NCBI RefSeq assembly: GCF_054482525.1 | Contig: NZ_CM137006.1 | DNA length: 64,000 nt | Strand: one strand, 5' to 3' | Shown here: positions 6,881 through 24,369 of the stretch, piece after piece | Layout of the letters: each line of letters opens with the position of its first letter | How positions within the stretch are numbered: position 1 is the first letter of the stretch | The notes under the pieces: generated by a model | The model's input: the letters and a program-made list of their open reading frames with translations, nothing else | The model's database searches: none | Told to the model about the DNA's origin: nothing | Position numbers and translations under genes: made by a program

Positions 6881-6936
6881 ATTCCCATAAACTCAGATCC
6901 TACGTGAAGCATCAATAAATCTGAGTTTATGGGAAT
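6881..6936. promoter_or_regulatory. melAB promoter operator region: perfect inverted repeat attcccataaactcagat / atctgagtttatgggaat separated by 20 bp (probable MelR sites)
   Basis: Palindrome read from sequence, located in melA-melR divergent intergenic region; assignment to MelR by established knowledge of melAB regulation. Confidence 0.55.
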
Positions 6937-7663
6937 AAATTACCTGAAAAGCAGAGTTTTCGGCCTCAGAATGCTCGGATGGTCCCCTCGCCTCTCTGGG
7001 AAGAGAGTGAAAACCGTGCTCCCACTCGCAGTCATCTTCCTGCACTCCTGCCATAATTCTGATATTCCAGGAAAGAGAGCCATCCATGAATACAGATACG
7101 TTTATGTGCAGCAGCGACGAAAAACAGACCCGCAGCCCGCTGTCGCTGTATTCGGAATACCAGCGGATGGAGATTGAGTTTCGCGCACCGCATATCATGC
7201 CCACCAGCCACTGGCATGGTCAGGTCGAAGTGAATGTGCCTTTCGATGGCGATGTGGAATACCTGATCAACAATGAAAAAGTGAGTATCAATCAGGGACA
7301 TATCACGCTGTTCTGGGCCTGTACACCGCACCAACTAACAGATACCGGAACCTGTCAGAGCATGGCGATTTTTAATCTGCCGATGCATCTGTTTCTCTCC
7401 TGGCCGCTGGATAAAGACCTGATTAACCACGTCACTCACGGCATGGTGATCAAATCACTGGCGACACAGCAACTTAGCCCGTTTGAAGTGCGCCGCTGGC
7501 AGCAGGAATTGAACAGTCCGAACGAGCAAATTCGCCAGCTCGCCATTGATGAAATTGGCCTGATGCTCAAGCGATTTAGCCTCTCTGGCTGGGAACCGAT
7601 TCTGGTCAATAAAACCTCGCGCACACACAAAAACAGCGTCTCGCGCCATGCGCAATTTTATGT

Positions 7664-7676
7664 CAGCCAGATGCTG
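7664..7676. repeat. Left copy of 13 bp target-site duplication (cagccagatgctg) of IS4
   Basis: Identical 13-mer found at 9103..9115 directly abutting the other IS4 end. Confidence 0.85.
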
Positions 7677-9102
7677 TAATGCCAGTCAGTTAAGCAACTG
7701 ACTGGCTCTTTTTCGGGGCTGTGGGGTATTTCCAGGGCCTCTCCTTTACCACTCTCGGGAAGGCCCTTTCCCTTCTTGTCGGTAATTTCACAAGTTGTCC
7801 CATACTTGCAAGATCGCGCATCAGCTCCGGTATACGTCCCGGTGAAGCGCCCTGCAATGTCATCAGCATTCTCATCACCATTCCGCATGATTCTGAGAAA
7901 CTCAGTTGATTCGGCCAGTAACCTTTCAGATGTTCCGCCATTTTAATCATCTGATATCTCACCAGATTATAAGCCAGTAAGACACCCCACAGCTCTTGCT
8001 CCACAAGCTCCGGTTTTTTACTTCTCAGCGTCAGCCTGCTCAGTTGCATCGTCTGTTTTATCTCCCTGTATCCCAGTTCGATTTCCCAGCGATGACTGTA
8101 CAGATCCGCCATTTCTCCTCCGGGGAAGCGCATGGCGTCCGTCATCGACGTCAGCAGATGGCAGACTTTTCCTTTGCGCGTCACGGTCAGCAGGCGGGCT
8201 GTCACTTCATTTCCCAGTCCCGGCCACTTTTTTCGTGCCTGCGGGCTGGTTTTCAGCTTCACCAGATGATCGCCTTTACCCAGTTTTCTGATCTCTTCAT
8301 ATTGCGCTCCCTTTCTGAGAGGTATCATCCAGTGGCGGTGTTCTCCCGCCAGGCTCCAGGCATTTAACAGTCCCAGTGAGTAATAACCTTTATCCATTAA
8401 CGTCAGAGTGTTATCGCCGGTTTGTTCTATAAGTTGCTCAGCAAGCTCATTTTCGCTGTTCTTCATCGTGCCGAAGGCTGCAGCCGTCAGCAGATGGCTG
8501 GTCAGTTCCATCTGGCAGACCATTTTGACCTGCGGGTAGAGCGCCGGGTTCCCGGCATGTGTCTGGCGGGGGAAGGCTGCATCGTTCTCTAGTGTATCCG
8601 GTGTGCGCCAGAACACACCATCGATGGCCAGCAGGGTCAGGCCGCACCAGTGCGGATGCGGCGTGGCGTTATGCCAGAGCTGCGCTGTTTTCGTGAACAC
8701 GCGGCGGACAGCCTCACTTCCCAGGCGCTGGCGGGCCTGAATAACGGCACTGGGGGCAACGAAGGGGCGATTGCCCGGCAGCATGATGTCCAGGCGATTC
8801 ACAATCTGGTGAAGAGGTTCTTTACGCTCAAGCGCCATGCCAACAATACACCAGACCATCATTTCGAGGGGAAGACGGCGCTTGCGTAGCGTTACAGTAC
8901 CTGATTCGGCAAGGCAACGAGAGATGAGTTCGGGGTCGAGGTAATCCCCCAGAGAAGTCAGTGGGTTACGCAGAGAATCGTAACGGGATACCAGATCAAG
9001 AGCCTGTCCAATGTGCATAAAAAAATCCGGAAACAAGTGAGCGTTTCCGGATTCTTACACAGCCACTGGATCGGTCAACTGATCCTTAACTGATCGGCAT
9101 TA
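7677..9102 (-). mobile_element. IS4 insertion sequence, complete (1426 bp) with imperfect terminal inverted repeats (taatgcc…/…ggcatta)
   Basis: Length and terminal repeats; internal transposase ORF; flanked by 13 bp direct repeat cagccagatgctg. Confidence 0.9.
7690..9018 (-). CDS. insG: IS4 transposase (InsG-like, DDE family), about 442 aa
   Basis: ORF inside IS4; translation matches IS4 transposase; start placed at MHIGQALD… (listed ORF begins 6 codons earlier). Confidence 0.85.
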
Positions 9103-18159: not shown

Positions 18160-19662
18160 TTATTCATCAATTCGCGGATGTTGCTGCACCAGGCGGGTAC
18201 GTTTCGCCTGCAAATCGGCAATCTCGTGGTCAATATCATCGATTTTCTGCTCGATATTATCGTAATGCTCGACGAGAATTTCCTTCGCTTCCTGTATATC
18301 TGACGCCGCCGGTGTCGCACCTTTCAACGGACGATTCGCCGTCTCTTTCATGGTTACGCCGGTGATTAAACCAACCACCGCCACTACCATCAGGTAATAG
18401 GCAGGCATCATCAGATTCTGCGAGCTTTCGACCAGCCAGGCCGCCAGTGTTGGCGTCAGACCGGCAACCAGCACCGAAATATTAAATGCCGCCGCCAGCG
18501 CGCTGTAACGGATATGCGTCGGGAACATCGCTGGCAAGGTAGAAGCCATAACGCCCGTAAAGCAGTTAAGGATCACCGCCAGCATCAGTAACCCGGCAAA
18601 AATCAGGCCGATGACGTTACTGTTAATCAGAATAAACGCCGGGATCGCCAACACAAACAGTGCAACACTACCAAGTAGCACAAACGGACGACGGCCAAAA
18701 CGGTCACTCAGCAAGCCCATCACCGGCTGGACAAACAGCATACCGATCATAATGGCGATAATAATCAGCACCCCGTGGTCTTCGGAGTAATGCAGGTTAT
18801 GCGACAAATAACTCGGCATATAGGTCAGCAACATGTAGTAAGTCACGTTGGTGGCAATTACCAGACCAATACATGTCAACAGGCTGCGCCAGTATTTAGT
18901 GGCAATCTCTTTAAACGAGACTTTCGGGCCATCCTGCAAACCTTCGCGGTCGCCCTGTTCCAGTTTATCAACATGCTGCTGGAACGCCGGAGTCTCTTCC
19001 AGCGCATGGCGCAGGTAAAGCCCGATAATCCCTAACGGCAGAGCAATAAAGAACGGAATACGCCAGCCCCAGTCGAGGAAGTTCGCTTCGCCGACAATGG
19101 TCGAAATTAACACCACCACGCCCGCACCCAGCACAAACCCGGCAATAGAACCGAAGTCCAGCCAGCTGCCCATAAATCCACGTTTACGGTCAGGGGAGTA
19201 TTCCGCAACAAATATCGACGCCCCGGTATATTCACCGCCGACCGAGAAACCTTGTGCCATCTTACAGATCAACAGCAGAATCGGTGCCCAAATACCAATC
19301 GTATCGTAGGACGGTATTAAGCCAATACAGAACGTACTGATCGACATAATCACAATAGTGATAGCGAGGATCTTCTGGCGACCATATTTATCGCCCAACA
19401 TACCAAAGAAGAGTCCACCAAGCGGTCGAATCAGAAAGGGAACGGAGAAAGTGGCAAGTGCAGCAACCATCTGCACGCTGGGGTCAGCCCCCGGGAAAAA
19501 AACTTTACCTAATGCGTAAGCAACAAAACCATAAACACCAAAATCAAACCATTCCATTGCATTACCCAGTGATGCTGCGGTAATGGCTTTACGCAGTTTA
19601 CCGTCATCAATAATAGTGACATCACGAAGGGTAATTGGTTTTACTTTTTTCCTTTTCAGCAT
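18160..19662 (-). CDS. proP: Proline/glycine betaine:H+ symporter ProP (MFS) with C-terminal coiled coil, 500 aa
   Basis: Translation from MLKRKKVKPITLRDVTIIDDGKLRK…; MFS topology; start chosen at internal ATG. Confidence 0.92.
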   Translation of the reverse strand: MLKRKKVKPITLRDVTIIDDGKLRKAITAASLGNAMEWFDFGVYGFVAYALGKVFFPGADPSVQMVAALATFSVPFLIRPLGGLFFGMLGDKYGRQKILAITIVIMSISTFCIGLIPSYDTIGIWAPILLLICKMAQGFSVGGEYTGASIFVAEYSPDRKRGFMGSWLDFGSIAGFVLGAGVVVLISTIVGEANFLDWGWRIPFFIALPLGIIGLYLRHALEETPAFQQHVDKLEQGDREGLQDGPKVSFKEIATKYWRSLLTCIGLVIATNVTYYMLLTYMPSYLSHNLHYSEDHGVLIIIAIMIGMLFVQPVMGLLSDRFGRRPFVLLGSVALFVLAIPAFILINSNVIGLIFAGLLMLAVILNCFTGVMASTLPAMFPTHIRYSALAAAFNISVLVAGLTPTLAAWLVESSQNLMMPAYYLMVVAVVGLITGVTMKETANRPLKGATPAASDIQEAKEILVEHYDNIEQKIDDIDHEIADLQAKRTRLVQQHPRIDE

Positions 19663-19925
19663 AGCTTTCCTCGCAGAGTTGGCCCATTTCCGCAAACGCC
19701 AGAAAAATCAGCGCGACGGCCGCAAAAGGGGAGCGGGAATTGCAGGATGCAATCTCTGTAACAAGCGTAGCGGGTTTGCTTACACCCTCCGGTTAAGGAA
19801 TGTACAATCAAACCAGTTGACGCCTGAATTGGGCAGTTAATGACCTTTTTACCCTACCAGTGTTTAAATTTGTGATCAACTTCACACATGCATTTCGTTT
19901 AGGACTCATTGGTGTAACTGATTAT

Positions 19926-20804
19926 TTACACCAAATTTACAGAGAAGATTTCCTCGACCATTGCCCCCGCCAGACGCTGCGCTGAACAGAGTCGTGGCAT
20001 CCCCAGTGCGACAGTTCGCCAGCGTTGGGTCACTGACCAGCAAACGGGTTGTTTATCTGCCGTGGACCACTTTCCCAGCCAACTTAAAAAATCAGCATGA
20101 TCCCCGCCCGTCGAAACGGTCGAAGAGGCAAACCACTGATGGTAATAGTGACGCGTGGTCGGGGCCGCATTGATACTCTCTGCCAGATGTTGTGTCGCTT
20201 TCACGCGCAAATCACCCAGCAACAACGCCACCGCTTGCGGGCTTCCCAGACGGCAGGCATCGCCAAATCCCCCCCAGCGCAACTCCTCCAGAACGATAAA
20301 ACAGCGCCCAGGCAACGACCAGGCGTTATACGCCCCAGCACGCCAGCGGGTAAAAATTTGCTCGCTCTGTTCACCCGCCTGCACCAGTAGGCCTCGTTGC
20401 GTTAACGCCTTTTCCTTCCAGCGACAACGGGCTGAAAACCACTCATACAAGGCGGCAATTTGCTGGGGGAGCTCAGGGAAAGCAGAGTGCTGGCGGTGAT
20501 CCATTTTTTGCAGCAGCGCCAGATGTTGCGCGATCTGCGTCAGCGCCAGATGACCGGGATCCAGCATCGAAGCCAGTTTTTCCACCAATGTCAGACGCAG
20601 GCTAAGCGGCGCATTTAACATCCCGCCGTTCGTCCATGCCTGAAGCTGCACACGCGCAAGAAGTTCCTGCATCAGTCGTTCACGAAACTGCTGCTGATGG
20701 GGTTGTGGATGGCGGACATCATCGCCCTGCGCCAGATCCACTAAAAAGCGCGGATGAACCGACTCCAGCACGCGACCGGGGCCGTCCAGTAACGTCTTGG
20801 TCAA
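19926..20804 (-). CDS. yjcZ: Uncharacterised protein YjcZ, 292 aa
   Basis: ORF immediately downstream of crfC, 4-bp overlap with crfC stop; matches K-12 yjcZ by position and length. Confidence 0.8.
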   Translation of the reverse strand: MTKTLLDGPGRVLESVHPRFLVDLAQGDDVRHPQPHQQQFRERLMQELLARVQLQAWTNGGMLNAPLSLRLTLVEKLASMLDPGHLALTQIAQHLALLQKMDHRQHSAFPELPQQIAALYEWFSARCRWKEKALTQRGLLVQAGEQSEQIFTRWRAGAYNAWSLPGRCFIVLEELRWGGFGDACRLGSPQAVALLLGDLRVKATQHLAESINAAPTTRHYYHQWFASSTVSTGGDHADFLSWLGKWSTADKQPVCWSVTQRWRTVALGMPRLCSAQRLAGAMVEEIFSVNLV

Positions 20805-23029
20805 TATCGTTCTGCCGTGAAAAGTGTTTGAATATCATCGCGTAACAGCTGAGCGTCGGTGTAAATCCAGCTGTGAGTCATCACAGCCTGCTGCAATTGC
20901 TGCTGCATCAGCCTGACCACCGATTCATTTTGTTGACGCAGAGCCAGGCTTTCGCGTAAACGCGTCTGTAATTCCGTCAAACATGAAGCGAACTCAGCGA
21001 AAAAAGTATTCATGCCTGCCGTAACAGATTCATCGACCTGCTCTGCCAGAACTTTAGCCATTTGTTGGCAATAAAGATCGACTTCTGCGCTTAATGCTCG
21101 TTGCAACACACTGTAATCAACCGTCTCTGTCGGGGATTTCTCATTTCCCCGTCCCCAGTCGGGCTGATTCAACCAGCGCGAAAAAGTCTCACGCACAACG
21201 CCTAAACGCGTGCTCTGCTCGTCCGTTGCTTCCTGGCGCGAAATGACTTCACTGAACAGCTGGCGAGTGTTGAAGTGGGGAACTGCGCCGTGAAAAACAG
21301 GAAAATGAAACCCAGGACGAAACCCTGACTCGCTCAATTCCATTTTGATTTGTTGCTCAATGGGCCGAATAACATCGGTTAACACCCGGCAAAGGGTGGA
21401 TTCCAGCTCGGCAAAACGCAGCGTAAAGTCGCGACTGATGGTGTTCTGCGCCGTCTGTAACAGTGTCTCACAGCGGGTACGAATCTCGCTTAACGGCTCC
21501 GAATCATCCTGAAACAAGGCGGCTAACTGCGCATTCAGCGCATCTTGCTGTTGACGCAGAAAGTGGTTGGCGGAGGTCAGGGCCAGCTCGATTTCATGTT
21601 TAATCTCGCCGCTCACCTGCGCCTGATTGAGTTGCAATAGCTGCAAACTTTCTTCGATCTGATGGATATTTTGCCGCAATTGTTCACAAGCGACGTTTAA
21701 CCCGTGCGCACGAAAATCCAGGTATTCCCGCGCCTGCTGCGCGTAATTCAACAGTTTATGCGCGGCAGATCGCAGAGCATACAACGAGGCGTTAGCGTAA
21801 GCGGCATGAAGCAACGCCTGAATTGGCTGGGCGAACAGCGAATCTTCCCACAACTGATCGGCAGCATGACGAATATGTTCGAGGTCCGCCAGATCGGCAT
21901 GACGCCAGCGCCTGCCGAGCGCGGCATGGGCAAAATCTTCCACCCAGCGTTGTTGCTCTGGCGGTGGTAACTTACCGTTGTTGGCTAACTCATGGCGCGC
22001 CCGATTCGCCAGGTAGCCCCACATCGACGACACCGGAAATATCTGCTGTGGCGTAATACAGCCTTTCATCAGCGTCCCGGAAATCAGTGCCCGCACCTGG
22101 TCGGCGTCGTCACTGTTACGATCCTGTTGATCGAACTTATTGACCAGCACATACAGCGGCACCGATTGCCCCACCGCCAAAATCGCCTCACGGACCTCTT
22201 CATCGGAGATCGATTTCAGTTGCGTATAATCCAGCACCGCCAGTACCGCCGAGGCGCGTGCCAGCTGCTGGTTAAGCATTTTTTGCAGATGCGGTTGCCC
22301 GGCTTCATTTGGCCCAGGGGTATCCAGTAACGTCAACTGACCGGGATAACTCTCCAGCCCCGCCAGATGGACAAACTCCACTTCAATCACGGGAATATAC
22401 TCAATGGCGGCGTAAGCAGAAAAAGGAAAATCGACGTCCAGCGCCTTCGCCAGTCGCACCAAATCATTCAAACTTTTCAGACAATGAAAAATAGGCTGGG
22501 CACCCAGATAATATTTTTCGAAAGCGACGCCATTTTCGATCCGCTGCATAAGCGCACGCATATCTTTATCTATTTCCAGCACATCGGTCAGATGCTTAAT
22601 ATCGCAATCACACAGGCGCTGTTGTAATTTTTGAATTAAACAATCGATTGGCGCGACATGTGAAAAATGCAGTACCGGTTCCTTTTGCCCGGGCGTATGG
22701 CGAATAAGCGTCGGCAGCGCAGTCATTGGGCGATTACGATTAGGCAAAACCTCCGTACCAACAATGGCATTAATGGTAGTTGATTTCCCTGCTTTCATGG
22801 TACCGACAATCGCCAGCACCATTTCCAGTCGGGAAATTTTACGCAACTCATTATTCAGCATCGCGTGACGTTCGGCGATATTAGGCTGACTCCAGGGTAA
22901 AGCCAGTTGTGGCGCATCGTCTCCGGGGACAGAGAGAGGCATTTTTTCCAGTAACTGCAACTGTTGGCGAGAAAGCTGTAACAGGCGTTCAGCCTCCTGA
23001 CTTAACTCATACAGGGTCTGTGTGTACAT
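20801..23029 (-). CDS. crfC: Dynamin-like GTPase CrfC (YjdA), 742 aa
   Basis: Large ORF with N-terminal P-loop (GTMKAGKST) GTPase domain; position between phnA and yjcZ. Confidence 0.85.
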   Translation of the reverse strand: MYTQTLYELSQEAERLLQLSRQQLQLLEKMPLSVPGDDAPQLALPWSQPNIAERHAMLNNELRKISRLEMVLAIVGTMKAGKSTTINAIVGTEVLPNRNRPMTALPTLIRHTPGQKEPVLHFSHVAPIDCLIQKLQQRLCDCDIKHLTDVLEIDKDMRALMQRIENGVAFEKYYLGAQPIFHCLKSLNDLVRLAKALDVDFPFSAYAAIEYIPVIEVEFVHLAGLESYPGQLTLLDTPGPNEAGQPHLQKMLNQQLARASAVLAVLDYTQLKSISDEEVREAILAVGQSVPLYVLVNKFDQQDRNSDDADQVRALISGTLMKGCITPQQIFPVSSMWGYLANRARHELANNGKLPPPEQQRWVEDFAHAALGRRWRHADLADLEHIRHAADQLWEDSLFAQPIQALLHAAYANASLYALRSAAHKLLNYAQQAREYLDFRAHGLNVACEQLRQNIHQIEESLQLLQLNQAQVSGEIKHEIELALTSANHFLRQQQDALNAQLAALFQDDSEPLSEIRTRCETLLQTAQNTISRDFTLRFAELESTLCRVLTDVIRPIEQQIKMELSESGFRPGFHFPVFHGAVPHFNTRQLFSEVISRQEATDEQSTRLGVVRETFSRWLNQPDWGRGNEKSPTETVDYSVLQRALSAEVDLYCQQMAKVLAEQVDESVTAGMNTFFAEFASCLTELQTRLRESLALRQQNESVVRLMQQQLQQAVMTHSWIYTDAQLLRDDIQTLFTAERY

Positions 23030-23352
23030 AGAAAATTCTTCCTTAAAGCAAATTTTGTTACTTTTATTTAGCCAGATTGTTTTTGAGTTCTGTTTTCGGC
23101 TTTTATAATTACTGCAAGAAATAATTTTATATTTAGCGTGTTGTTTTTTATTAGAATAAATAACGTCTTCCGATACGTTTAAAACGTCAGAAAGATAAAA
23201 ATATCATTTGAATTAAAAAAAGAACAAGTAGAGCATTAACCTTATCTTAAATAATAAATGGAGGCAAAAAGATTATTTTCTTTTTGCGTTTCCTTTCAAA
23301 TGAAAACGATCGTCGTCTAAAATCAGCAGTACCCCCGACAAACTCAGGGATT

Positions 23353-23362
23353 TTGTGTATAA
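23353..23362 (+). promoter_or_regulatory. Candidate extended -10 element (tgtgtataat) upstream of phnA
   Basis: TGnTATAAT match read from sequence in AT-rich intergenic region; no -35 verified. Confidence 0.3.
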
Positions 23363-23430
23363 TTGCGGCCTTTTTCGGCAATCTGCCGTTTTTTGGCGCT
23401 TTTGCCCTGCTGACTTTTGAGGAAATCCAC

Positions 23431-23766
23431 ATGTCATTACCACACTGCCCAAAATGCAACTCCGAATACACCTACGAAGATAACGGCATGTACATCTGCC
23501 CGGAATGTGCCTACGAATGGAACGACGCAGAACCTGCAGAGGAAAGCGACGAGCTGATCGTTAAAGATGCTAACGGCAATCTGCTGGCTGACGGCGACAG
23601 CGTTACCATCATTAAAGATCTGAAGGTGAAAGGTAGCTCTTCGATGCTGAAAATTGGCACCAAAGTGAAAAACATCCGCCTGGTTGAAGGCGACCATAAC
23701 ATCGATTGCAAAATCGACGGTTTTGGTCCGATGAAACTGAAATCTGAGTTTGTGAAAAAGAACTGA
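23431..23766 (+). CDS. phnA: Zinc-ribbon protein PhnA (YjdM), 111 aa
   Basis: [30 protein letters not shown]… with CxxC…CxxC motifs; listed ORF extends further upstream but real start is ATG at 23431. Confidence 0.88.
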
Positions 23767-23782
23767 TTGTATTGTGATCGGT

Positions 23783-23862
23783 AAGCCGGATAAGGCGCTC
23801 GCGCCGCATCCGGCAACGATGCCGACAGCCTGATGCGACGCTGACCGCGTCTTATCAGGCTT
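23783..23862. repeat. REP/BIME cluster (two REP palindromes)
   Basis: gccggataaggcgctcgcgccgcatccggc and gcctgatgcgacgctgaccgcgtcttatcaggc motifs. Confidence 0.75.
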
Positions 23863-23925
23863 CCCTCTCATCTGTATAAATTTCGAACTACACTTAACTG
23901 GCTTCTCTTAACTGAGGTCACCATC

Positions 23926-24369
23926 ATGCCGTTAAGTCCCTACCTCTCTTTTGCCGGTAACTGTGCCGACGCAATTGCTTATTATCAACGTACGTTGGGC
24001 GCTGAACTGCTCTATAAAATCAGCTTCGGCGAAATGCCAAAATCAGCGCAGGACAGCGCCGAGAACTGCCCTTCCGGAATGCAATTTCCCGATACCGCCA
24101 TCGCTCATGCCAACGTGCGCATTGCCGGAAGCGATATCATGATGAGCGATGCTATACCGTCAGGAAAAGCCAGCTACTCCGGCTTTACGCTGGTGCTCGA
24201 TTCGCAACAGGTCGAAGAAGGGAAACGCTGGTTTGACAATCTTGCCGCCAACGGAAAAATCGAAATGGCATGGCAGGAAACTTTCTGGGCGCATGGCTTC
24301 GGCAAAGTCACTGATAAATTTGGCGTACCGTGGATGATTAATGTCGTCAAACAACAACCAACGCAATAA
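23926..24369 (+). CDS. phnB: Glyoxalase/bleomycin-resistance fold protein PhnB (YjdN), 147 aa
   Basis: ORF upstream of phnC; matches K-12 phnB by position and length. Confidence 0.82.
   Translation: MPLSPYLSFAGNCADAIAYYQRTLGAELLYKISFGEMPKSAQDSAENCPSGMQFPDTAIAHANVRIAGSDIMMSDAIPSGKASYSGFTLVLDSQQVEEGKRWFDNLAANGKIEMAWQETFWAHGFGKVTDKFGVPWMINVVKQQPTQ

Follow-up and report, generated by a model that had tools for sequence, protein, structure and literature searches.

The crfC (rdcA)-yjcZ (rdcB) operon of Escherichia coli, encoding a dynamin-like GTPase with its partner, and its intragenic FliA promoter

Two overlapping genes beside a long AT-rich spacer, crfC and yjcZ, raise two questions: what a dynamin-like GTPase does together with the product of the adjoining gene, and whether both genes are expressed as a single unit. 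We examined them in a 64-kb window (the whole stretch of 64,000 nucleotides that was analysed), which comes from an E. coli chromosome. The DNA was matched at 100% by E. coli SCU-102, where crfC, rdcB and yjdM are annotated, and most other E. coli genomes showed 95-99% DNA identity to the window strain; the crfC-yjcZ pair was found in 5,419 of 5,426 complete genomes (99.9%). The RefSeq boundaries of both genes coincide with the boundaries of the open reading frames (Table 1), the RefSeq gene name for yjcZ being rdcB, and the divergent gene yjdM (phnA in the older naming) starts at position 23431. CrfC matched the NCBIfam equivalog NF007368 over its full length (1-742 of 742; 1591.5 bits, cutoff 1146), and YjcZ covered the whole of the Pfam profile PF13990 (1-272 of 272; 473.8 bits, cutoff 27; E = 2e-142). 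Reading frames, NCBIfam, Pfam and RefSeq thus agree with the gene identities of the original prediction, which had also taken the 742-residue product of crfC to be a dynamin-like GTPase. The locus is the E. coli crfC(rdcA)-yjcZ(rdcB) operon, which has already been described in the literature, and for the window itself this has little consequence, as a well-annotated core operon with both function and regulation published.

Table 1. Positions of the crfC-yjcZ genes and of the associated sequence features in the window
Feature	Position	Strand	Remarks
yjcZ (= rdcB)	19926..20804	-	292 aa, TTG start; all-alpha partner protein
yjcZ TTG start over crfC TGA stop	20801..20804	-	TTGA, context ...CGA TAT TGA CCA AG...; coupling geometry
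crfC (= rdcA, yjdA)	20801..23029	-	742 aa, ATG start; open reading frame and RefSeq annotation; soluble dynamin-like GTPase
FliA promoter inside crfC, drives yjcZ	21029..21056	-	TAAAGTTC-N11-GTCGATGA; matches published ChIP-seq motif
Dynamin_N / G domain coding region	22199..22816	-	aa 72-277; Pfam match
Beta-clamp-binding motif, codons of 41-QLALP	22895..22909	-	Motif found in window; defined in PMC6374313
AT-rich intergenic spacer, crfC leader/promoter and yjdM promoter region	23030..23430	.	401 bp
Lone sigma-28 -10-like octamer	23093..23100	-	GCCGAAAA; read from sequence; no matching -35; candidate only
Extended -10 candidate, TGnTAnnnT	23198..23206	-	TGATATTTT; sole one in crfC sense, two hexamer mismatches; not supported
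Perfect DnaA-box consensus	23354..23362	-	TTATACACA; yjdM-proximal part of spacer; pattern scan; putative function

The Pfam domain Dynamin_N (PF00350) was found in CrfC with 65.7 bits (cutoff 27; E = 7e-18), and a motif search located G1 (GTMKAGKS, residues 76-83), G2 (T103), G3 (DTPG, 236-239) and G4 (NKFD, 297-300), whose residues were invariant in 36 of 36 sequences, paralogues of 33% identity among them. Note that G4 falls just past the end of the Dynamin_N match. In an AF2 model of moderate confidence (pLDDT 79, pTM 0.60), the G domain is followed by helices at residues 400-505, 513-560 and 639-741. When this model was compared with the PDB using Foldseek, the best 50 matches all belonged to the dynamin superfamily, aligning over 700-850 columns at E-values down to 6e-12; the TM-scores to dynamins were low (about 0.3), as expected because dynamins are hinge-jointed proteins. 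The domain search that had been proposed as a check of the original prediction therefore found a dynamin-type fold, in agreement with the G motifs and the Foldseek result, and we conclude that CrfC is a member of the dynamin superfamily with an N-terminal G domain and a predicted long helical stalk. For GTP hydrolysis and self-assembly of CrfC, PMC6510439 and PMC6374313 cite Ozaki 2013, and the protein was reported to be soluble and to have no membrane-binding paddle (PMC6374313, PMC6510439). K82 and T103, the residues mutated in PMC6510439, are both present in the window.

The structural matches included BDLP of Nostoc, SynDLP, IniA, mitofusins, DLP1/DLP2 of Campylobacter and LeoA. Like BDLP, SynDLP, IniA, DLP1/DLP2 and LeoA, CrfC appears to consist of a G domain and then a long helical bundle (best full-length matches with E-values between 6e-12 and 2e-7), although it is only 12-15% identical to the known bacterial dynamin-like proteins, the similarity detectable with phmmer is limited to the P-loop region, and its partner is the unrelated YjcZ and not a second dynamin. 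The weak PADLOC matches of CrfC, confined to the G domain (LeoBC, 3.8e-06; LeoA, 7.4e-06), did not place it in the anti-phage systems Eleos or 'Dynamins', and no PADLOC model matched YjcZ.

YjcZ is confidently predicted to adopt an orphan all-alpha fold. A CrfC homologue was encoded immediately upstream of YjcZ in all 80 species loci, which answers the co-occurrence check proposed with the original prediction, and a dynamin was upstream in each of 11 additional metagenomic loci with YjcZ-like genes (11/11). The two-gene form was syntenic in 111 species-level genomes, with yjdM on one side and proP on the other, and the GTPase-YjcZ partnership, the overlap of the genes and an internal promoter (see below) were conserved over about 20 genera. 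The original prediction had called the function of yjcZ poorly defined, a description that is outdated at the genetic level: since 2019 YjcZ has been known as RdcB, which RdcA (CrfC) requires as a partner for activation of the diguanylate cyclase DgcE (PMC6510439). Genetics and a two-hybrid assay indicated that RdcA and RdcB interact with DgcE and activate it via its MASE1 domain (PMC6510439). RdcA/RdcB (YjdA/YjcZ) of E. coli K-12 (Pfiffer et al. 2019, PMC6510439) is the same system as that in the window, with the same genes, protein lengths (742 and 292 residues), gene order and overlap, and we found no substantive difference between them. The gene dgcE itself lies outside the window.

We consider it very probable that the core operon is explained by the RdcA/RdcB-DgcE function together with expression in two tiers. 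According to the published genetics, RdcA binds RdcB and docks on the membrane MASE1 domain of DgcE. The nucleotide-free form of RdcA would be active and GTP inhibitory, so that falling GTP at the entry into stationary phase would turn on DgcE, leading to c-di-GMP, CsgD and the curli/cellulose matrix. In E. coli, CrfC is also reported to bind the beta-clamp via 41-QLALP and to affect nucleoid partition. In the first tier, a long transcript would arise from the AT-rich leader, which is reportedly repressed by H-NS, and the TTGA overlap could couple translation of yjcZ to termination on crfC; in the second, a FliA promoter inside crfC, 225 nt before yjcZ, would give a transcript of yjcZ only, and the partner protein, hence the RdcA:RdcB ratio, would come under control of the flagellar regulon. 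Our own evidence covers the gene identities, the fold, the overlap, the exact match of the promoter, and the conservation of the pairing and the promoter, and the experiments on DgcE, GTP, the clamp, H-NS and FliA are from the literature. The mechanism rests on the papers of two laboratories, which disagree over whether the primary role is DgcE activation or chromosome partition.

If chromosome partition were the primary role of the pair, CrfC would tether sister replication forks via the beta-clamp, YjcZ would be an accessory and the activation of DgcE would be secondary. The protein described as the nucleoid partition factor CrfC (Ozaki 2013; PMC6374313) is the same as that in the window, judging from the presence of 41-QLALP and the full match to the NCBIfam equivalog, and RefSeq names it 'clamp-binding protein CrfC'; it was reported to bind the clamp and to form foci at the nucleoid poles, and delta-crfC and Q41A mutants were reported to produce anucleate cells (PMC6374313). 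However, Q41, a residue required to bind the clamp, occurred in only one of 79 orthologous loci, namely the E. coli window itself, the sister Escherichia species having P at this position, whereas the G domain, the pairing with YjcZ and the overlap are conserved across the loci. Clamp binding thus looks lineage-specific in comparison with the conserved GTPase/YjcZ partnership. Moreover, yjcZ is never mentioned in PMC6374313 and no partition role has been reported for YjcZ, clamp binding is independent of GTP, and much of the in vivo work was done by expression from plasmids (PMC6510439). We therefore regard a primarily partition-related role as unlikely. These results bear on the 'CrfC or RdcA' dispute, since wide conservation is seen for the partnership, the overlap and the internal promoter but not for the clamp-binding Q41, which is limited to E. 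coli; the 80/80 pairing, the predicted orphan fold of YjcZ and the restriction of Q41 to the E. coli sequence are new in the present study. In the AF2 model, 41-QLALP is in a low-confidence, probably disordered segment. A related peptide, L-x-L-x-[W/F]-S, is conserved, so that some peptide-mediated contact may exist.

The second part of the RdcA/RdcB-DgcE explanation, the two-tier expression, has to be weighed against a simple bicistronic operon, in which one sigma-70 extended -10 promoter in the leader would be the sole promoter and yjcZ would depend fully on crfC via translational coupling. Expression of both genes from the leader as a single unit was likewise the view of the original prediction. 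The predicted 4-bp overlap exists and is widely conserved (73 of 80 orthologous loci), although its sequence in the window is TTGA, with a TTG start, and not ATGA. ATGA was the form outside Escherichia and TTGA that of the three Escherichia loci; the TTG start was limited to Escherichia loci, and yjcZ began with ATG in 75 of the 80. The N-terminus of YjcZ as read from TTG was homologous to that of the ATG-started orthologues, with M1, G8, R11, L13 and E14 invariant. Judging from the geometry of the overlap, translational coupling between crfC and yjcZ is plausible.

A unit fed from the leader does not account for the published data, which place a FliA promoter within crfC that feeds yjcZ separately and was validated by ChIP-seq and RNA-seq (PMC4183435). 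The sequence of the site in the window was identical at 28 of 28 positions to the FliA ChIP-seq motif '(yjdA)yjcZ' (PMC4183435, Table 2). Scored against the consensus TAAAGTTT-N11-GCCGATAA, it matched at 13 of 16 positions with a spacer of 11, the joint best sigma-28 score in the window. In about 60 of 80 loci the motif preceded the yjcZ start by exactly 225 nt, and the conservation of synonymous sites was raised at the internal promoter (91st-95th percentile). The yjcZ RNA dropped from 52 to 1 in a fliA deletion (PMC4183435), and a lacZ fusion to the (yjdA)yjcZ promoter was FliA-dependent (bioRxiv 10.1101/188474). (yjdA)yjcZ is the third published intragenic FliA promoter of this kind; like the other two, (flhC)motAB-cheAW and (yafY)ykfB, it is sense-oriented and supplies the following gene with a canonical mRNA (Fitzgerald 2014, PMC4183435). 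Unlike in those two cases, crfC and yjcZ share 4 bp and encode proteins that associate in a complex, suggesting that the internal promoter can alter the stoichiometry of the partners, RdcA:RdcB, and does not merely activate an unrelated gene. Note that yjcZ on the sigma-28 transcript must start at TTG with a weak Shine-Dalgarno sequence, which counts against the model.

The long AT-rich leader that the original prediction assigned jointly to crfC and the divergent phnA (yjdM) is real: the GC content of the 401-bp spacer was 0.32 overall and 0.24 in the lowest 200-bp interval, in comparison with about 0.5 in the flanking genes, and the orthologous leaders were 323-636 bp with a GC content of 0.33-0.43 in all measured loci. 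The extended -10 element proposed in it did not hold. The pattern TGnTAnnnT occurred once in the crfC sense where 0.34 occurrences were expected from simulations (P(>=1) = 0.28), that is, at the level of chance; in both Escherichia sp. E1V33 and E. whittamii a 2-bp deletion has removed the site, and none of the sigma-70 candidates scanned had the TG. Sigma-70-like hexamers, such as TTGAAA-16-AATAAT at 23299..23272, are present in the leader, but such matches are expected in AT-rich DNA (seven as against 3.7 +/- 1.7 in shuffled sequences). Together with the FliA promoter inside crfC, these results make the simple bicistronic operon highly improbable, even with the conserved overlap and the conserved AT-rich leaders in its favour.

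As regards regulation of the long transcript in the two-tier model, binding of H-NS to the crfC promoter region and repression of crfC have been reported, as have DnaA boxes in the same region and an effect of DnaA on crfC mRNA (PMC6374313). A consensus scan of the window leader for sigma-28 promoters found no site that reached 11/16. The octamer GCCGAAAA is conserved in three Escherichia species, with a whole-promoter score below 10/16. Matches of 11-12/16 in 38 of 77 orthologous leaders were not taken as promoters; they were scattered, except for one that covers the start codon together with the ribosome-binding site and that we attribute to the conservation of that region itself and not to a promoter. 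In Fitzgerald 2014 (PMC4183435), the region upstream of yjdA had no FliA ChIP peak, and the earlier prediction was called incorrect. RNA of the crfC (yjdA) body was nevertheless reported to be about 10-fold FliA-dependent (PMC4183435; fold-changes in Zhao 2007), yet the sole FliA site is near the 3' end of crfC, so that the two-tier transcription model is incomplete. At the other end of the operon, no convincing intrinsic terminator was found after yjcZ; the candidate 3' of yjcZ is an AT-rich hairpin that spans the stop codon and has no T-run. In the leader and the 3' region, a scan with Rfam E-values of positions 19500..24000 gave no structured RNA, riboswitch or sRNA, the sole match, a naRNA4/REP-type element, being outside crfC-yjcZ.

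Relatives of YjcZ at or below about 32% identity were always encoded in dynamin-YjcZ-patatin cassettes, which adjoin restriction-modification, Gabija-like, NERD/UvrD and toxin-antitoxin genes, i.e. defence islands. A paralogous accessory cassette was carried as island cargo at variable chromosomal sites in 2,445 of 5,426 E. coli genomes (45%); the three-gene paralogue was absent from the window. An accessory operon of a dynamin, an RdcB-family protein and a patatin-like phospholipase on E. coli genomic islands was already noted in 2026, with a proposed role in phage defence (PMC12922286). Its dynamin is 33-34% identical to CrfC and its YjcZ-like protein about 31% identical to YjcZ, and it shares the gene order and the overlapping start and stop codons with crfC-yjcZ; it differs in being mobile-island cargo and in having a third gene, which encodes a patatin whose GASIG and DGG motifs are intact. 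That YjcZ always accompanies a dynamin, joined in the defence-island cassettes of distant relatives by a patatin that is catalytically intact, provides a testable handle on the role of YjcZ.

Although the cassettes beside defence genes and the island-borne paralogues might suggest that the pair is a decayed remnant of such a mobile module, with its phospholipase effector lost and no selected function, this is scarcely credible, since the synteny of the two-gene form in 111 species-level genomes with both reading frames intact, the conserved catalytic motifs and regulatory promoter, the presence in 99.9% of E. coli genomes, and the clear biofilm and motility-suppressor phenotypes of the deletions (PMC6510439) indicate a maintained core function and not decay. 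Starting from the RdcA/RdcB-DgcE explanation, we tentatively suggest, as a possibility that we rate at well below even, that the YjcZ family are adaptors, each linking its dedicated dynamin-like GTPase, by way of the nucleotide state of the latter, to an output that acts on the membrane. crfC-yjcZ would then be the chromosomally fixed branch of the dynamin-YjcZ-patatin module, lacking the phospholipase gene, and would have the MASE1 domain of DgcE as its output in place of a patatin. If so, RdcA/RdcB signalling and a putative abortive-infection-type defence system would share one mechanism, and the GTP-sensing logic proposed for DgcE may also serve the mobile form as a phage-triggered switch. 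In other genera, yjcZ and proP are separated by a further 1.7 kb, which was considered as a hiding place of a lost patatin gene; this was rejected, since the region encodes a KdgT permease on the opposite strand.

The crfC-yjcZ pair is a known, well-annotated operon that was correctly identified in the original prediction; the model proposed for it needs correction with respect to the function of yjcZ, a FliA promoter inside crfC, the TTG start of yjcZ and the extended -10 element. The six-frame ORFs coincided exactly with the coordinates proposed for both genes (Table). The junction sequence (...CGA TAT TGA CCA AG...) showed that the proposed 4-bp overlap is real, but that it is TTGA, with the TTG start of yjcZ lying over the TGA stop of crfC. 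RefSeq gives identical boundaries in a strain with 100% identity over 3.8 kb, and the YjcZ N-terminus from the TTG aligns with ATG-started orthologues, in which M1, G8, R11, L13 and E14 are invariant. The region is carried by 5,419 of the 5,426 complete E. coli genomes. Strain N921 (H6, NZ_CP176484.1) has an IS1A insertion in the crfC-rdcB-yjdM stretch, its match being in two pieces and about 776 bp longer. Three E. coli proteins of 438-442 aa (P0018, P0019 and P0022) have Dynamin_N and YjcZ domains in one protein (in P0018, about 227 other residues are followed by YjcZ residues 82-292); these look like internal deletions fusing crfC to yjcZ, as natural E. coli alleles. No convincing intrinsic terminator was found between yjcZ and the proP promoter region.

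Table. Features of the crfC-yjcZ region and its surroundings
Feature	Position	Strand	Description
Inverted repeat GGTGTAA-N8-TTACACC	19911..19932	-	AT-rich; spans the yjcZ stop codon; no T-run after it
yjcZ	19926..20804	-	292 aa; TTG start; six-frame ORF list
crfC	20801..23029	-	742 aa; ATG start; six-frame ORF list
Sigma-28 (FliA) promoter motif	21056..21030	-	Inside crfC; TAAAGTTC-N11-GTCGATGA
Codons of CrfC aa 41-45	22895..22909	-	Clamp-binding motif (41-QLALP)
crfC/yjdM spacer	23030..23430	divergent	401 bp; GC 0.32; lowest 200-bp window GC 0.24
Lone GCCGAAAA	23093..23100	-	In crfC-proximal conserved part; 7/8 against the sigma-28 -10 element; no -35
TGnTAnnnT	23198..23206	- (crfC sense)	Sole occurrence of this sense in the leader
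Perfect DnaA box	23354..23362	-	In yjdM-proximal conserved part
Rfam naRNA4 (CssrE)	23784..23861	+	REP-type nucleoid-associated ncRNA between yjdM and yjdN; 85.5 bits, E 6e-15

Because the operon has been assigned to the flagellar regulon, we looked for sites resembling the sigma-28 consensus. The highest-scoring site of the region (13/16, joint best across the 64-kb window) lies inside crfC and not in the leader, and is identical at 28 of 28 positions to the FliA ChIP-seq motif '(yjdA)yjcZ' of Fitzgerald et al. 2014. According to that study, yjcZ is driven by a promoter inside yjdA (crfC), with its RNA falling from 52 to 1 in a fliA deletion, and the FliA promoter predicted earlier upstream of yjdA is incorrect (PMC4183435). 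The FliA dependence of the internal promoter was confirmed with a lacZ fusion (bioRxiv 10.1101/188474). In about 60 of the 80 orthologous loci, the distance from the motif to the yjcZ start is exactly 225 nt. Within the motif, synonymous-site conservation of the codons for K659 (AAA, 0.96), D666 (GAT, 0.95) and V665 (GTC, 0.84) reaches about the 91st-95th percentile, and the codon block 659-668 ranks fifth among about 400 sliding windows. This raised conservation in the alignment indicates selection on the nucleotides of the motif beyond the protein sequence. In six loci from Kosakonia, Phytobacter massiliensis and a soil MAG (L011, L029, L033, L044, L046 and L047), the best sigma-28 match is not at -225; they have in common another 13/16 match (GAAAGTTTGCGTGACAGCCTGGCGATAC) located 133 nt upstream of yjcZ, possibly a sign of promoter turnover within crfC. 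In two published data sets the yjdA body is about 10-12-fold FliA-dependent, whereas the only FliA ChIP site of crfC is near its 3' end; the dependence of the yjdA body may reflect indirect control or an activator-dependent promoter.

The AT-rich region of about 400 bp that was proposed to be common to crfC and the divergent yjdM (formerly phnA, beginning at 23431) was confirmed by its length and composition (Table), and leaders are long and AT-rich in every genus measured (323-636 bp, GC 0.33-0.43). The candidate extended -10 element placed there did not hold up: the only TGnTAnnnT of crfC sense in the leader has a chance P of about 0.28, a 2-bp deletion removes the site in two other Escherichia species, and the leader scan gave no sigma-70 candidate with TG. 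An Rfam search of the leader gave no match. The parts conserved in Escherichia are the yjdM-proximal 140 nt or so and the crfC-proximal 100 nt or so; H-NS binding and repression, together with DnaA boxes, have been reported for the crfC promoter region (PMC6374313).

CrfC gave a full-length match to the NCBIfam CrfC equivalog (1591 bits; cutoff 1146) and a match to Pfam Dynamin_N (7e-18), and YjcZ matched PF13990 (2e-142). A motif search located the G motifs of CrfC (GTMKAGKS at 76-83, T103, DTPG at 236 and NKFD at 297), which were invariant in 36 sequences, among them paralogues with 33% identity. Because the sequence match to the PDB relatives BDLP and DLP1/2 was confined to the surroundings of the P-loop, we predicted the structure from the orthologue alignment (pLDDT 79, pTM 0.60). 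All of the top 50 Foldseek PDB matches of the model belonged to the dynamin superfamily (among them BDLP, SynDLP, IniA, mitofusins, DLP1/2, LeoA and Drp1), with 700-850 aligned columns and E down to 6e-12. The domain match, the G motifs and the Foldseek result support CrfC as a dynamin-like GTPase, and the predicted model argues firmly for the dynamin fold, helical stalk included.

The description of yjcZ as poorly defined is still fair at the biochemical level; genetically, it has been outdated by the literature on CrfC and on yjdA and yjcZ, renamed rdcA and rdcB by Pfiffer et al. 2019. DgcE needs both RdcA and RdcB to drive CsgD and matrix production, and RdcA binds both RdcB and the DgcE MASE1 domain; since RdcA K82A is active and T103D inactive, the results suggest that RdcA activates when free of nucleotide and that GTP acts as an inhibitor (PMC6510439). 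CrfC has been described with its clamp-binding motif, oligomerisation and nucleoid-partition phenotypes (PMC6374313). Among 79 orthologous sequences, the clamp-binding residue Q41 was present only in that of the E. coli window; sister Escherichia species have P at this position, and the adjacent L-x-L-x-[W/F]-S peptide is conserved. This distribution favours the GTPase-YjcZ partnership as the ancestral function, with canonical clamp binding probably specific to E. coli; a variant peptide contact could occur in other genera.

The YjcZ family is small, with 196 representatives (E<=0.001) among 1.84 billion in an exhaustive HMMER search, and members were detected in 111 species-level genomes by a genome scan. 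In the 80 loci listed from the scan, covering about 20 Enterobacteriaceae genera, the co-occurrence proposed as a check was complete, a CrfC homologue being directly upstream of yjcZ in 80/80. The 4-bp overlap was present in 73 and an ATG start in 75; TTG was found only in the three Escherichia loci. The pair keeps its synteny with yjdM and proP, and across genera identity to the E. coli proteins is about 60% for CrfC and YjcZ versus about 92% for ProP and YjdM, so the pair evolves quickly in a conserved neighbourhood. In most non-Escherichia genera, an opposite-strand gene for the 2-keto-3-deoxygluconate permease KdgT lies between yjcZ and proP (for example, 6935..7933 in locus L021); it is absent from Escherichia and a few others, such as Trabulsiella, Yokenella and Superficieibacter, where the yjcZ-proP gap is only about 260-440 bp.

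The only forward-looking angle is at the family level. In the three loci examined for YjcZ relatives with 34-47% identity, the two-gene form is retained, and two of these loci also have yjdM alongside. At about 32% identity or less, the relatives always belong to a cassette of three genes whose start and stop codons overlap, in the order dynamin (about 800 aa), YjcZ-like protein and patatin (about 355 aa); the upstream dynamin and a patatin with intact GASIG and DGG motifs were present in 8/8 cassette loci. YjcZ proteins may serve as adaptors that link a dynamin-like GTPase to an output acting on the membrane; this output would be DgcE for the core pair and the patatin for the mobile cassette. 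The cassette is absent from the 64-kb window, and PADLOC has no models for its dynamin or YjcZ-like protein. Its operon was already noticed in 2026 as strongly induced in Kapi1 lysogens, with a defence role proposed only (PMC12922286), and is therefore context and not a discovery. Its neighbours are genes of defence type, namely type I restriction-modification, the Gabija-like AAA_15/21 ATPase with a UvrD helicase, NERD with a UvrD-like helicase, and a toxin-antitoxin pair of the PIN type. CP4-44/57-like islands carry the cassette as cargo in 2,445 of the 5,426 complete E. coli genomes.
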